From NCBI GenBank assembly GCA_963793305.1, contig CAWBZV010000003.1:416001-480000 (forward strand): a DNA stretch of 64,000 bases, written 5' to 3'. This DNA is from an uncultured Gemmatimonadales bacterium (GTDB taxonomy: Bacteria > Gemmatimonadota > Gemmatimonadetes > Gemmatimonadales > Gemmatimonadaceae). The notes beneath the pieces are model-generated. The model was not told the origin of the DNA and did no database searches. It was given only the letters and a program-made list of their open reading frames with translations. Below, one piece after another: positions 33,134 to 36,710 of this stretch (position 1 is the first letter of the stretch; each line of letters opens with the position of its first letter). The translations under genes and the position numbers were made by a program.

Positions 33134-35636
33134 GCGAGACGCCACTCATGCAGCAGTATCGGGAGATCAAGGCGCGGCATCAGGACGCGATCCTGTTCTT
33201 TCGCATGGGCGATTTCTTCGAGATGTTCTACGAGGACGCCGAGGTTGGCTCGCGGGTCCTGGGTCTCACGCTGACGGCACGCAACAATGGCGGTGCGGCG
33301 GCGGTCCCTCTGGCCGGCGTCCCCGCCAAGGCGGTCAGCGAGTACGTCAAGCGACTCGTCCGCAAGGGCTTTCGTGTGGCGATCTGCGAGCAGGTCGAAG
33401 ATCCCAAGTACGCGAAGGGTCCTGTTCGGCGCGAGGTCATCGAGACGGTCACGCCCGGCGCCGCGCTCGCCGACGATCTCCTCGACGGGGCTCGCAATAA
33501 TTTTCTCTGCGCGCTGCATGGCACTGGTCTCGCGGCGGTCCGAATGTCTCGACGGGCGAATTCCGTCTCGCCACCGCCCACGTATCCGACGCCGCGGCTC
33601 TCGTCGCTCGCTACGCCCCACGTGAGATCCTGATTGCGCGCGGCGCCACGGTCGGCGTGCCGATCGATGGCGTGCTCGTGACAGAGCGCGAGCCGTGGGA
33701 GTTCGACACGGCGAGTGGCGCCGAAGCGTTAGCCCGGCGTTTTGGCGTTCAGTCGCTCGAGGGATTCGGCGTTCAGTCGTCCGACGCACCTGCCGTAGCG
33801 GCAGCGGGCGCATTGTTGGAGTACCTGCGCGAGCTTCAGCCGGGCGGGCTCCCGCACTTGGCGCGGCCGGTCATCGAACGTCCTGGTGGCTCGGTGCCCC
33901 TCGACGAAATGACGCGCCGGAATCTCGAGCTCGTCGAGTCGTTGCGTGGTGAGGCCGCGGGCACGTTGCTCGACGTCCTCGATCGGACATCGACGCCGAT
34001 GGGCGCGCGGCTTTTGCGCCAGTGGATTCTGGCGCCGCTTTCGGATCGCGTCGCGATCAACGCGCGGCTCGATCGCGTCGAGGCGTTGGCCAACGACTCA
34101 TTGGCCCGTGCGGCGTTGCGTGACGCGCTCGATGGGGTGCGCGACGTCGAGCGCCTCGCCGGCAAGGTCGCCGCTGCCCGGGCGACACCCCGCGAGCTTC
34201 GCTCGCTCGGCGACTCGCTGGCGCGCCTACCCGACGTTAGCGCGGCGGCGGCGCGCGTGGGTCTCGCCGAGCCCTGGGACACGTGCGACGATCTCGCCGC
34301 CGCGATCACTCGAGCGCTCGTCGAGCGGCCGCCGATCGCGATCGGTGATGAGCCGACGATTGAGATCGGTGTCGATGCCGGCGTCGACGAGCTGCGTGTG
34401 CTCCGTGACGGAGGGAAGGACGCGATCGCCGAGATTCAGGCGGCCGAGCGTACGCGGACGGGGATCGCGTCGCTCAAGGTCGGCTACAATCGGGTGTTCG
34501 GATACTTCATCGAGGTGACGAACGCCAACAAGGACGCGGTTCCGGCCGACTATCAGCGTCGCCAGACGCTGACGGGGGCCGAGCGGTATGTGACGCCGGC
34601 GCTCAAGGAGTACGAGGAGCGGGTGCTGACGGCGGCCGAGCGATTGGAGGCGCGCGAGCGGGAGTTATTCGAGGCGTTGCGCTCTGCTACCGGCACTGGG
34701 ATCGCTCGCCTTCAGCTTGTTGCTCGGCGAGTGGCCGAGCTCGACGTTGTGGCGACGTTCGCGGAGGTGGCGGAGCGCGAGCGGTTTGTTCGGCCGGTGG
34801 TGACGGACGACCTCGAGATCGACATCGTCGGCGGCCGGCATCCGGTCGTCGAGCGGATGATGCCGCGCGAGCAGTTCATCCCGAACGATGTTCGGCTCAG
34901 TACGGCCGAGCGGGTGATTATTCTCACGGGGCCGAACATGGCGGGCAAGTCGACGATCCTGCGCCAGGTCGGACTCATCGTATTGTTGGCCCAGGCCGGC
35001 AGCTTCGTACCCGCCGCGCGCGCGACGATCGGCATCGTCGACCGGCTCTTCACGCGCGTCGGCGCGAGCGACAATCTCGTGCGCGGGCAGTCGACGTTTA
35101 TGGTCGAGATGGCGGAGACGAGCGCCATTTTGCACACGGCCACCGCGCGCAGCCTCGTGTTGCTCGACGAGATCGGCCGCGGGACGTTGACGTACGACGG
35201 CGTCTCCATTGCGTGGTCCGTCACCGAGCATCTGCACTCTCGGGTAGGCTGCAAGACTATTTTCGCCACGCACTACCACGAGCTGACGCAACTCGCCGAC
35301 GAGCTCCCGGCTCTCCGCAACTACAACGTGGCCGTCCGCGAAGTCGGCGATCGCATTTTGTTCTTGCACCGGATGCAACCGGGCGGCGCCGATCGCTCCT
35401 ACGGAATCGAAGTCGGCCGCCTCGCCGGCCTCCCGGACGCCGTCATCACTCGCGCTCGCGAAGTGTTGCGGCGCCTCGAAAGCGAACAGCTCGTCGCGTC
35501 ACGCCCTGTCGAGCAGCTCGCACTTTTTGCTCCCGAGCCTCACGCCGCCGTCAAACGCTTAGCAGCGCTCAATCCCGATGATATGACGCCGTTGCAAGCA
35601 CTGACTTTGTTATCTGAGCTCAAAGGGCTCGTTTAA
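33130..35636 (+). CDS. mutS: DNA mismatch repair protein MutS (frameshift ~33540-33600)
   Basis: TPLMQQY, FRMGDFFE, GPNMAGKST, STFMVEM, DEIGRGT, FATHYHEL. Confidence 0.95.
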
Positions 35637-35772
35637 AATCTCACCGCCGAGATTTACTCGCTAGCGCGCAACGCGCGGCGCTTTTTATATTGCCGGTCCG
35701 CTGAACCAGCGTGTGGCCGTTTTCGAATCACCGTGTCGCAGCACCCAGTTGGCACCAAACACGCCGCGTGTG

Positions 35773-35858
35773 GCCCGCGTGGTGGAACTGGTAGACACGG
35801 TCGATTCGCAATCGACTGACCCGCAAGGGTCGTGTGGGTTCAAATCCCGCCGCGGGCA
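35773..35858 (+). tRNA. type II tRNA with Leu-type body and CGC (Ala) anticodon
   Basis: Acceptor GCCCGCG/CGCGGGC with A73; D-arm GTGGAACTGGTAGACAC; anticodon arm GTCGA-TTCGCAA-TCGAC; variable arm GACCC-GCAA-GGGTC; T-arm GTGGG-TTCAAAT-CCCGC; no encoded CCA. Confidence 0.9.
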
Positions 35859-35888
35859 CACGCTGGTTGACACGTACGCTTTTGCACG

Positions 35889-35917
35889 TTGACGGTCGGA
35901 CGCACTATTTCTAGATT
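35889..35917 (+). promoter_or_regulatory. sigma70 promoter for the downstream small RNA
   Basis: TTGACG-17 bp-TAGATT. Confidence 0.7.
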
Positions 35918-35921
35918 TACT

Positions 35922-35997
35922 ACGACCCTTGCGGGCGAAGTGTCCGCCAGTTCCAGACACAGAAGTGACCCCGGGTGATTGCGACACCCGGGGTTTT
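35922..35997 (+). ncRNA. putative anti-tRNA small RNA (three hairpins)
   Basis: Bounded by a promoter and a terminator; three segments complementary to the upstream tRNA. Confidence 0.7.
35969..35997 (+). terminator. intrinsic terminator (possibly bidirectional)
   Basis: CCCCGGGTG-ATTGCGA-CACCCGGGG-TTTT. Confidence 0.8.
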
Positions 35998-36005
35998 CTG
36001 TTGCG

Positions 36006-36710
36006 CTACATGGTCGTCGCCGGCTGATCCGGCATCAGGAATCGAAATTCCTGCCGCACCCACTGCCGCACGAGCCTCCCGCCGAGCTCCGCGGGCACGA
36101 AGCGCATGTGAGGGAGCGCCGAGCGGAGTGATTGCTCGAAGGCCGGGTGCGAGGAGTGGATCACGCGGAGACTGGTGCTGTCCGCGCCGCCCGTCGTGTC
36201 GACGACGAATTCGACGGTCAGCGACCCCTCGATGTGATTCTCCATGAGATACGACGGATACTCCGGCGCCGCACTCGTGGGATCCCGTTGCACCTCGCGG
36301 TCGACCTCGGCGTCGACATAGACCTTGCCACTCGGCAGCGCGTCGATGTCGGGAAGGTCGACCGTAGGCGCCGCGTCGCCCTTGCGCCCAAGGCCGATGC
36401 CTTGGCGGTTGTCGCCGGCGACGTTGAGCCCGGTGCCTTTGGTGGCCTTTGACCGGTCCCCAGACCCATTGGCATTGCTCGGCGCCCATTTGACGCCAGC
36501 GGTATCGAGCGACTTCCCTGTGGGAATCGTCGGAGCCAGATAGGTGACGATGCGCTCCTCGTCACTCTTCTTATCCGCCACTTTCGGCCAATACGCGGCA
36601 CCGGACGCGATGAAAAAGACGACAGCGGAAGCCGCTAATCCCACCGTCACCGACGGTACCGAACACAGACTCGCACTCTGTGGTGCCACGAGGTGGCGCA
36701 GCATACCCAC
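36006..36710 (-). CDS. TonB family energy transducer
   Basis: N-terminal TM; PEYP...IEG...VEFVVDTTG...FVPA. Confidence 0.8.
   Translation of the reverse strand: MGMLRHLVAPQSASLCSVPSVTVGLAASAVVFFIASGAAYWPKVADKKSDEERIVTYLAPTIPTGKSLDTAGVKWAPSNANGSGDRSKATKGTGLNVAGDNRQGIGLGRKGDAAPTVDLPDIDALPSGKVYVDAEVDREVQRDPTSAAPEYPSYLMENHIEGSLTVEFVVDTTGGADSTSLRVIHSSHPAFEQSLRSALPHMRFVPAELGGRLVRQWVRQEFRFLMPDQPATTM

Follow-up and report, generated by a model that had tools for sequence, protein, structure and literature searches.

The window analysed here is a stretch of 64,000 nucleotides (nt) from an uncultured Gemmatimonadales bacterium (assembly GCA_963793305.1, contig CAWBZV010000003.1, positions 416,001 to 480,000 of the forward strand), and the subject of this report is a small RNA (sRNA), S1, that lies downstream of the transfer RNA (tRNA) gene T1 in this window. 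A tRNA and its downstream sRNA will be referred to as a unit, and the genome of the window as G000. Most likely, with a probability of about 0.55, S1 and its relatives are dedicated anti-tRNA RNAs that bind the adjacent anticodon-switched tRNA, mask its anticodon, unfold its core and bar this potentially leucine-misinserting tRNA from translation. The evidence is read from the sequences and consists of promoter and terminator signals, covariation across the family, specificity for the cognate tRNA and fast co-evolution of the two genes. The original prediction, which was made from the letters of the window, held that the sRNA was selected to pair with the tRNA, and this has gained support, as the arrangement recurs in two paralogous units, in three syntenic orthologues and at many Gemmatimonadota loci with compensatory changes that include the anticodon. 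Its picture of three loops kissing a folded tRNA has to be given up, as only one block is predicted to lie in a loop here and typical members carry a continuous 18-nt antisense at the 5' end.

For a result obtained by computation, the comparative signal is exceptionally clear, with 18 co-varying intermolecular pairs and orthogonal paralogues. Covariation was examined in 28 typical units (T1 excluded, ungapped register), in which the 18-nt antisense extends over the D stem (3' strand), the anticodon stem (5' strand) and the anticodon loop. Each of the 18 consecutive positions (index 24-41, roughly tRNA positions 23-40) is paired in 23-28 of the 28 units, with up to four types of Watson-Crick pair. 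At index 30 the pairs are A-U (13), G-C (7), C-G (6) and U-A (2), and at the middle anticodon base they are G-C (22), C-G (3), U-A (2) and A-U (1). The complementarity at variable stem positions was 0.94 for cognate and 0.59 for non-cognate combinations, and the mean duplex energy of short segments was -38.1 kcal/mol for cognate pairs versus -21.7 +/- 5.8 kcal/mol for non-cognate pairs. RNAduplex over long windows (background near -50 kcal/mol) was dropped, and short-segment duplexes and exact-match tables were used instead. The cognate tRNA ranked first for 23 of the 29 sRNAs and among the top three for 28, the exception being S1. Since the antisense spans the D-stem 3' strand and the anticodon-stem 5' strand, full pairing would have to unfold the tRNA core and could not be a kiss with a folded tRNA. 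In several members this antisense part of the sRNA can itself adopt a hairpin that mirrors the one of the anticodon arm and bears the codon triplet at the apex. Over the 26 units in which the anti-loop heptamer could be placed, its mean unpaired probability is 0.46.

The tRNAs of the family are themselves supported as folded molecules. All seven acceptor-stem pairs hold in 29 of 29 tRNAs, each of them realised by 2-5 pair types. Compensatory changes are also seen in the anticodon, variable and T stems, and in the 29 sequences they support all four stems and the variable arm. A73 and the variable arm are present in every one of them. The T loop reads UCCGAAU in six of the 29 tRNAs (L024, L033, L045, L047, L049 and L074), with C at the nearly universal U55.

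The family is widespread in soil Gemmatimonadota, and its breadth was determined with pattern scans that leave the downstream DNA untouched. Every carrier found in this analysis is a metagenome-assembled genome. The first scan (D loop plus a CNC anticodon-loop pattern, one genome per species) gave 57 loci, including 26 tRNAs with anticodons other than CAA. An exact antisense of 10-19 nt was found 40-80 nt downstream of 22 of the 23 such tRNAs outside the Gammaproteobacteria, Chitinophagaceae and Hyphomicrobiales, the remaining one having 9 nt; the three tRNAs from records of those groups reach 7 nt. The internal controls (upstream antisense, and sense on either side) gave 5-9 nt with one value of 14, and three normal tRNA-Leu(CAG) loci had no downstream antisense (6-8 nt). 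In the second scan, which targeted anticodons starting with G, an antisense of at least 10 nt was present at 22 of 28 loci labelled Gemmatimonadota versus 1 of 38 other loci, and this single positive came from the same bin labelled Planctomycetales that holds a CGC unit. The anticodons in the second scan were GCG, GAC, GGC, GGA, GGU, GUC, GCC and GUG, and the sRNA tracked them at the 22 loci with an antisense of at least 10 nt. With CGC, CUC and CAC, these make up the non-leucine anticodons seen across the family. Odd anticodons occur in at least 11 genomes of an even 401-genome sample of the phylum, a lower bound given the strict pattern. The sample contains one genome flagged as unpublished (G140), which matched just once, with an ordinary tRNA-Leu(CAA), and is the basis of no claim made here. 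With a relaxed pattern, 12 of the 120 matches listed held a tRNA, and 10 of these 12 had a downstream antisense of at least 10 nt.

The sRNAs of the family are 60-85 nt long and are located 40-80 nt downstream of the tRNA. A promoter score of at least 8 was obtained in 20 of the 29 units, and 22 of 29 passed a crude terminator test. In most units the end of the -10 box and the antisense are 5-9 nt apart, which places the antisense at the extreme 5' end of the predicted RNA. No conserved protein partner is common to the loci, whose neighbours include MutS, TonB_C, PP2C, radical SAM, ABC1, GcvT, M24 peptidase, topoisomerase IB and GuaA; judging from these neighbourhoods the module is RNA-only.

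A complete normal tRNA set was found by ARAGORN in the whole G000 genome (Leu GAG, UAG, CAG, UAA and CAA; two normal genes for Ala CGC, plus Ala UGC and GGC) along with three leucine-shaped CGC tRNAs: T1 (C3:451773), T2 (C3:636248) and T3 (C3:709201). Six further long ARAGORN calls appear to be false positives in coding-like sequence. T2 and T3 are each followed on the same strand by an sRNA (S2 and S3) with a promoter and terminator; S2 starts with an exact 16-nt antisense of tRNA index 24-39 and S3 with an exact 20-nt antisense of index 22-41. The co-fold gains with T1, T2 and T3, respectively, were -17.4, -10.0 and -10.7 kcal/mol for S1; 0, -10.8 and -5.2 kcal/mol for S2; and -2.3, 0 and -20.4 kcal/mol for S3. 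The best values lie on the diagonal of this 3x3 matrix, each of the three sRNAs preferring its own tRNA.

The whole unit between mutS and the tonB-like gene is kept in three genomes of the same genus (G001, G004 and G005). At this one locus the tRNA anticodon is CGC in G000, CGC in G001, CUC in G004 and CAC in G005, and the antisense triplets in the orthologous sRNAs are GCG (G001), GAG (G004) and GUG (G005). In these orthologous sRNAs the first ~23-27 nt are an almost uninterrupted antisense of the anticodon arm and the 3' part of the D arm (by eye, 26/27 in G001 and one bulge in G005). The DNA identity between G000 and G001/G004 is 93% for mutS and 82%/93% for the tonB-like gene; it is 81%/79% for the odd tRNA and ~54% for the sRNA (G004 only). 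The normal tRNA-Leu(CAA) is 100, 100, 99 and 98% identical in G001, G004, G005 and G003. By these identities, the odd tRNA is evolving very fast relative to its neighbouring genes.

These comparisons bear on the idea that the roles are reversed, with the sRNA regulating messenger RNAs (mRNAs) through a 5' seed and the tRNA or its precursor acting as a sponge. The seeds of sRNAs are usually 5'-terminal, as the antisense is here, and tRNA-derived sponges are reportedly known, the 3' external spacer of the E. coli glyW-cysT-leuZ transcript being a parallel. However, wherever the stems of the adjacent tRNA change between paralogues or orthologues, the 5' region of the sRNA changes in exactly the same way, so no fixed mRNA target could be kept, and the tRNA is the sole co-varying partner. 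A reversal of roles is thus considered very unlikely.

Additional observations were made at the related loci. T3 has a second sRNA copy ~270 nt downstream (C3:709009-709028, minus strand) that has a terminator and a promoter (TTGATT, 17 nt, TAGATT) of its own. The anti-D/stem part of this copy still matches T3, its anti-loop is TTCCTGG and not TTGCGAG, and the co-fold gain with T3 is only -8.8 kcal/mol. The copy may have belonged to an anticodon that T3 carried earlier or that has since been lost. In G001 (L004/L053) the spacer and promoter sequence (GGCACGTGTGCTTTCGCACGTTGACG) is repeated just past the first sRNA terminator, pointing to a second sRNA gene in tandem like the one at T3. The units lie within one region of ~250 kb per genome (C3:451773, 636248 and 709201 in G000; 2559310, 2795471 and 2804589 on the G003 chromosome), and the anticodons can differ within one genome (CGC and GAC in G003).

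By its signals, S1 is a small-RNA gene with its own sigma-70-type promoter and terminator, and it is predicted to be transcribed (Table 1). The promoter is the sole sigma-70-type match in 35400-36400 (shuffle mean 0.1), and its TTGAC and positions 1, 2, 4, 5 and 6 of the -10 hexamer are invariant in 4 of 4 syntenic orthologues; promoter and terminator are both intact and conserved with the orthologues. An Rfam (release 15) search over 35900-36000 gave zero matches at E<=10, and thus none at the gathering threshold for the sRNA; this places S1 in no family of that release. On seven other units Rfam returned tRNA matches and one chance miRNA match below threshold.

The strong terminator of S1 is located 11 nt past the stop codon of the TonB_C gene, which is convergent, and may act on both strands. 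It had been recognised from the start that the hairpin might be only the terminator of this convergent gene; the other matches would then be coincidental. The distance to the tonB-like stop fits with this, as do RNA contigs of the tonB-like gene that terminate at 36002-36013. The explanation is contradicted by the shuffle and genome-background controls described below, the T run is better on the plus strand, and the combination of promoter, antisense and terminator recurs beside different neighbours, including loci without a convergent gene; the next gene after T2 is on the same strand and has its own promoter-like site. We therefore regard it as almost certainly wrong. The metatranscriptome contigs also include a 32-nt piece of the tRNA 3' half that comes from a relative and is uninformative on S1 or T1 either way.

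Three blocks of S1 are complementary to T1 (Table 1). All three had been described in the original prediction, namely a 14-nt block against the variable arm, a D-arm block with 14 of 16 positions plus one G:U, and a terminator-loop block against the anticodon loop, and each was recovered as described. The longest exact match between S1 and T1 is 14 nt, and the exact matches of at least 8 nt sum to 31 nt. In dinucleotide shuffles of 35918-36000 (n=5000) a 14-mer was reached once and a sum of 31 never; among random 83-nt windows of the same genome (n=20000), 14 nt was reached by one and a sum of 31 by three. A chance origin of the three complementarities is excluded. The co-fold gain of S1 with T1 (-17.4 kcal/mol) compares with a mean of -1.8 (sd 3.4) over all 61 tRNAs of 70-95 nt that ARAGORN calls in this genome, cognate included, and was matched by 1 of 300 shuffled versions of S1. 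The shuffle comparison and the comparison with the leucine tRNAs of the host, both of which had been suggested as checks, thus favour pairing with T1, the gain with the normal tRNA-Leu(CAG) and tRNA-Leu(CAA) being -8.8 and -8.0 kcal/mol, respectively. In the co-fold model S1 sits on the D and variable regions, and the anticodon hairpin and T arm of T1 remain standing. Since the two S1 helices leave the anticodon hairpin free and the terminator loop is complementary to it, a two-helix clamp with a loop-loop kiss is geometrically sensible. S1 may grip T1 in this way, although the kiss is a contact that co-folding cannot model.

Table 1. Features of the S1-T1 locus, with positions numbered in the window.
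Feature	Position	Strand	Details
mutS gene	33657-35636	+	5' neighbour of T1
Leader strand of leader-trailer helix	35704..35719	+	Pairs with 35853-35868 (tRNA 3' end and trailer), 16 nt, 94% complementary
Leader cis antisense CGAATCACCGTGTC	35724..35737	+	Complements tRNA 35794-35808 with one bulge (D-stem 3' strand, anticodon-stem 5' strand, part of loop)
Leader motif GYGTCGCAGCAnCCAG	35733..35748	+	~25-40 nt upstream of most family tRNAs, any anticodon
tRNA T1	35773..35858	+	ARAGORN; Rfam tRNA (RF00005) 54.2 bits vs cut-off 29; class II, A73, anticodon CGC
sRNA promoter, sigma-70-type	35889..35917	+	TTGACG, 17 nt, TAGATT; 9/12 consensus positions
Small RNA S1	35922..36000	+	~75-79 nt, predicted start 35922-35925; from promoter and terminator
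Block 1	35922..35935	+	14/14 reverse complement of T1 variable arm (35820-35833)
CGAA linker	35936..35939	+	Complementary to anticodon-loop UUCG (35805-35808)
Block 2	35940..35955	+	Antisense to D arm 35783-35798, 14/16; exceptions are one C.A mismatch and one G:U
Intrinsic terminator hairpin	35967..35995	+	11 pairs, 7-nt loop; then TTTTCT (35996-36001)
Block 3, GATTGCGA	35977..35984	+	8/8 complement of tRNA 35806-35813 (U33 to position 40); six bases in terminator loop
Convergent open reading frame, TonB C-terminal domain	36006..36710	-	PF03544, E 3e-9; context only

The fold predicted for S1 differs from the one proposed originally. The minimum free energy (MFE) structure has -36.8 kcal/mol (z -3.48); the three-hairpin fold has -30.1 kcal/mol, which is 6.7 kcal/mol worse, and its GTGTC/GACAC hairpin has a pair probability below 0.01. 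In the MFE structure GCGGGC (35931-35936, block 1) pairs with GUCCGC (35942-35947, block 2), a sequence that is generated by the two changed bases of block 2. The terminator loop AUUGCGA (35978-35984) has an unpaired probability of 0.96-1.0 and is the sole robustly open stretch. The statement that the antisense parts sit in loops consequently applies to block 3 and not to blocks 1 and 2, which pair with each other. The order of the blocks had been said not to be that of a simple inverted duplication; block 3 is indeed out of order, but blocks 1 and 2 follow the reverse-complement order of tRNA positions 11-61.

S1 can be read as the reverse complement of tRNA positions 11-61 in which the anticodon arm between blocks 1 and 2 is reduced to CGAA, possibly the remnant of a deleted anti-anticodon arm. 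It has no canonical anti-anticodon-arm block, the order being an anti-variable-arm block, CGAA and a longer anti-D block. Block 1 is missing from the orthologous sRNAs of G001, G004 and G005, where an anti-anticodon-arm block is found instead. The terminator loop of S1 contains UUGCGA, the complement of U33-A38, and the terminator loops of the three orthologues have no match. The three-block layout is present in 0 of the 28 other units examined. The rest of the assembly was also searched for a canonical anti-anticodon sRNA that would fit T1; the best 20-mer (C2:617923, 3 mismatches) falls within an open frame of 829 codons and was judged to be chance, with no obvious promoter or terminator by eye in its flanks, in an assembly that is 92% complete.

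Several points weigh against reading S1 and its relatives as anti-tRNA RNAs. For the canonical target region S1 ranks 13th of 29 (-19.9 kcal/mol) and, with the canonical block lacking, it may be a copy in decay. Parts of blocks 1 and 2 are hidden in the predicted self-fold, and the 8-nt terminator-loop match is single and unreplicated, occurs in no orthologue and would arise within the sRNA by chance with a probability of ~1 in 1000. As the T loop normally holds the D loop once a tRNA has folded, block 2 would need an unfolded or nascent tRNA. Contigs of four metatranscriptomes cover the 3' end of the tonB-like gene (36002-36100) and none extends over S1. The leucine identity of T1 is deduced from its shape, A73 and D-arm likeness, and the global identity of the odd tRNA to normal leucine tRNAs is just 67-77%. 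The search patterns fix the D loop, Y32, U33, A37 and A38, so the constancy of these in the collected set is no evidence, and related sequences, including the T2 and T3 orthologues, inflate the counts.

A rival explanation takes S1 to be a decaying relic, a canonical sRNA that was overwritten by the reverse complement of tRNA 11-61 (by gene conversion or inverted duplication) and then lost its hairpin-forming anticodon-arm part, which would make the complementarity a historical trace, with the terminator hairpin now serving mainly tonB. It would account for the reverse-complement order of blocks 1 and 2 with just CGAA between them, the lost pairing with the conserved target of the family, the concealment of parts of the blocks in the self-fold, a layout seen in no other sampled unit and the lack of a canonical T1 partner elsewhere in the assembly. 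However, the promoter (9/12) and terminator are intact and conserved with the orthologues, and the anti-anticodon hexamer lies within the sole reliably open loop. Block 1 fits the variable arm of T1 at 14 of 14 positions though the loop of this arm differs in the orthologues, which argues that the match is recent or maintained. As the module evolves fast, an unselected complementarity of 30 nt should also erode quickly. We consider decay unlikely on balance.

T1 has the body of a leucine tRNA and the anticodon of another amino acid. Its variable arm is long, its D stem has 3 bp and its D loop reads GGAACUGGUAGAC; the acceptor/T arrangement is 7/5 and the discriminator base is A73. The identity rules for tRNA-Leu, which come from work in E. 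coli, are a long variable arm, A73 and a D arm made of a 3-bp stem and a Leu-type loop; the body of T1 agrees with these and its anticodon is outside the leucine set (NAG or YAA). The anticodon loop is UUCGCAA, in which the anticodon CGC corresponds to the alanine codon GCG. T1 is not a tRNA-Ala by the G3:U70 rule, since 3:70 is C:G and the alignment pair 3-84 is never G:U in the 29 sequences. The D arm is near-identical to that of tRNA-Leu(CAA) from the same genome, in which a single gene for leucyl-tRNA synthetase (LeuRS; C3:1490390-1492720) was found above the cut-off and no extra LeuRS. GCG is the most used codon of G000 (62 per 1000), and GUC, CGC, GAG and GUG, the codons of other members, rank 5th, 9th, 10th and 12th. 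Codon reassignment was considered and rejected: in MutS, GCG codons align with alanine (26/28 and 30/30) and GAG codons with glutamate (33/33) of the orthologues, a weak test as the proteins are 97% identical.

The region upstream of T1 also contains potential pairing elements (Table 1). A GC hairpin with a T run (GCGCGCAACGCGC GGCGCTTTTT) lies at 35664-35685, directly 3' of mutS, such that the T1 leader begins in a terminator-proximal gap of ~90 nt. The leader-trailer pairing also appears in the MFE structure of the precursor (z -3.94), and analogous leader/trailer pairs of other sequence were seen by eye in T2, T3 and further loci. The duplex of the leader antisense with tRNA index 21-43 has -24.4 kcal/mol. 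Over the leaders of 29 units the mean is -23.2 kcal/mol with the own tRNA versus -19.6 kcal/mol with others, which indicates a weak leader specificity. No sigma-70-like promoter for T1 itself was found in 35400-36400, and the leader motif might act as a promoter of another type, or mark a place where the RNA is processed or a factor binds. Candidates for sigma-54 or extracytoplasmic function (ECF)-type tRNA promoters that were noted by eye are unconserved and were dropped.

It is conceivable from these elements that the pairing serves maturation or turnover of the tRNA, with the sRNA, the leader antisense and the leader-trailer helix steering folding, processing (RNase III, RNase P) or quality control; the tRNA may then act outside ribosomal decoding, for example as an aminoacyl donor. 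A second, degenerate antisense in the leader to the same tRNA region together with the leader-trailer helix would fit such a role, as would the missing sigma-70-like promoter for the tRNA, the replacement of U55 by C in 6 of 29 tRNAs and a duplex of ~18 bp, a plausible substrate for RNase III. Against it, the leader specificity is weak, an sRNA with its own promoter would be an odd means of processing a neighbour, and no linked transferase or other protein gene was found at the loci. The anticodon varies among abundant sense codons and the sRNA tracks it, which is more easily explained by use in decoding. A role in maturation or turnover is accordingly judged to be improbable.

If S1 and its relatives act as anti-tRNA RNAs, the system would work as follows. 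The first gene encodes a leucine-type class II tRNA that has exchanged its anticodon for one matching an abundant non-leucine codon (in T1, CGC for GCG), and leucine would be inserted at GCG if LeuRS charges T1 and the ribosome accepts it. The second gene would give an sRNA of 60-85 nt that opens with the antisense of the anticodon arm of its own tRNA. The sRNA would first touch the exposed anticodon loop, and the duplex would spread into the anticodon stem and the D stem to ~18 bp in typical members. This duplex would mask the anticodon and unfold the tRNA core, so that the tRNA could no longer take part in translation and might be passed on to a double-strand RNase. The copy in the window would instead use 14 bp of the variable arm and 16 positions of the D arm for its pairing, and the anticodon hairpin that is left standing could be kissed by the AUUGCGA terminator loop. 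Transcription, binding in vivo, charging with leucine, decoding and the inhibitory outcome are what we infer from the sequence evidence given above.

It is possible, though we hold this more tentatively than the anti-tRNA reading itself, that the unit is an all-RNA toxin-antidote module in which the toxin is a stable leucine-charged tRNA that misreads an abundant codon and the antidote is a short-lived sRNA that clamps the anticodon arm. A loss of sRNA synthesis (for example through the shut-off of transcription by an infecting phage, stress or loss of the locus) would then free the tRNA and poison translation. The window copy would be a re-wired antidote that grips the D and variable arms while its terminator loop kisses the anticodon loop. 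The tRNA diverges far faster than the neighbouring genes and the anticodon and antisense change together (CGC, CUC and CAC at one locus), as would be expected of a conflict or addiction system.

If the anti-tRNA reading is correct, bacteria possess tRNAs with the ability to misread abundant sense codons and, for each, a private RNA that acts as a 'safety catch', and the anticodon arm of a tRNA would be a new class of target for base-pairing sRNAs. The units would be a possible RNA-only toxin-antidote or conditional-mistranslation system and a case of natural anticodon switching with co-evolving control. Regulated mistranslation in bacteria would become directly testable, and a ready design would be available for the on/off control of suppressor or recoding tRNAs by a short antisense RNA.

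Several known systems resemble these units in part. T-box leaders also read an anticodon by base pairing with a codon-like triplet in a loop, but they are cis leaders of genes related to aminoacyl-tRNA, sense the 3' end and leave the tRNA folded. S1 is free-standing with no gene downstream, its terminator faces a convergent gene, it has no Rfam T-box match and its pairing extends into stems. RNA I and RNA II of ColE1 interact through kissing loops and an interaction with uncharged tRNAs has been reported; as proposed here, loop-loop contacts of seven nucleotides, reportedly between anticodon-like loops, nucleate a longer duplex. The ColE1 RNAs differ in controlling plasmid copy number, in having no sequence relation to S1 and in having no dedicated tRNA. 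The nev-tRNAs of nematodes reportedly carry glycine or isoleucine anticodons and are charged with leucine; they are like T1 in principle (class II body, foreign anticodon) but are eukaryotic, and we know of no dedicated antisense partner for them. Streptomyces is said to have tRNAPro species with Ala, Thr or Asn anticodons together with ProRSx, and thus bacterial tRNAs built for deliberate mistranslation. Their partner is a dedicated synthetase, whereas here the partner is an RNA and no extra LeuRS was found in the genome.

The RNA antitoxins of type I and type VIII systems would share with the sRNAs a small adjacent RNA gene whose product neutralises that of the other by base-pairing logic, as well as paralogous pairs that are insulated within one genome. 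The partner of S1 is a tRNA and not the mRNA of a toxic peptide as in type I systems, and the unit has no protein gene. Type III systems are set apart by tandem repeats, none of which were seen among the direct repeats, and by a neighbouring endoribonuclease-type protein, none of which is conserved here. In the type VIII system CreTA, an RNA toxin that sequesters a tRNA is countered by an RNA antitoxin (PMC8501985). Its mechanism involves a tRNA and both partners are RNAs, as in our units; the CRISPR-like repeats and the dependence on Cascade that mark type VIII systems are not evident here, though no dedicated repeat search was made. The sRNA would act much as an RNA antitoxin or a T-box specifier does, yet it falls outside the type I, type III and T-box definitions.

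The allo-tRNAs of Acidobacteria and other bacteria are class II tRNAs in which the anticodon and the aminoacylation identity are mismatched, and they have been proposed to be missense or nonsense suppressors and/or regulatory RNAs (Mukai et al., Nucleic Acids Research 2017, PMC5389517; PMC7609411). They resemble T1 in being natural bacterial class II bodies with a foreign anticodon, and differ in having an 8/4 or 9/3 acceptor/T arrangement and mostly serine or alanine identity; with 7/5, A73 and a Leu-type D arm, T1 falls outside the group as described there. The terms 'antisense' and 'Gemmatimonad' are absent from the main text of PMC5389517 and PMC7609411, so no partner sRNA is described in that text. 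A search of the full-text literature, which does not cover subscription journals, gave no tRNA with a dedicated antisense sRNA and no account of these Gemmatimonadota tRNAs. The Gemmatimonadota-wide, fast co-evolving pair of tRNA and anti-tRNA genes appears to be new and lends itself to experiments.

Other observations concern the distribution of related sequences. Complete units were found in bins labelled as other phyla (L044 and L292 in one Planctomycetales bin; L074 and L145 in Chloroflexota/Chloroflexi bins), and these could be mis-binned Gemmatimonadota contigs or represent real spread. L025/L085 (G136:C82) is truncated: the tRNA ends after the anticodon loop and runs straight into the sRNA promoter, and the sRNA matches with one mismatch, so that it looks like a decayed module. 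In metagenome-assembled genomes of Solirubrobacterales (L258 and L296) there is an odd tRNA-like gene with a Leu-type D loop, the loop UUGUCAA (GUC) and an extended 5' part; L296 has a 9-nt antisense of the anticodon arm within ~15 nt of the end of the tRNA-like gene, a weak and partial match. In several other phyla Leu-type D loops are joined to GUC, GCC or GAA loops.

The pattern matches from Betaproteobacteria were set aside as a phenomenon different from the Gemmatimonadota system. At L023, L026, L031, L032, L039, L042, L048, L062, L067, L069, L075, L076, L078 and other loci, a copy of the 5' half of tRNA-Leu(CAA), at which ARAGORN calls no tRNA, lies upstream of the intact gene and is cut within the anticodon loop (between ..GACTCA and CAA..). 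The copy is followed by a conserved, structured-looking insert of ~95-110 nt (..TTGCGGCG.AGGCTAAC..GTTAAGC..GGCCG.AG) and then by CAAAATCC, the 3' part of the loop. This insert is tandemly repeated at L054, L067, L075 and L076.

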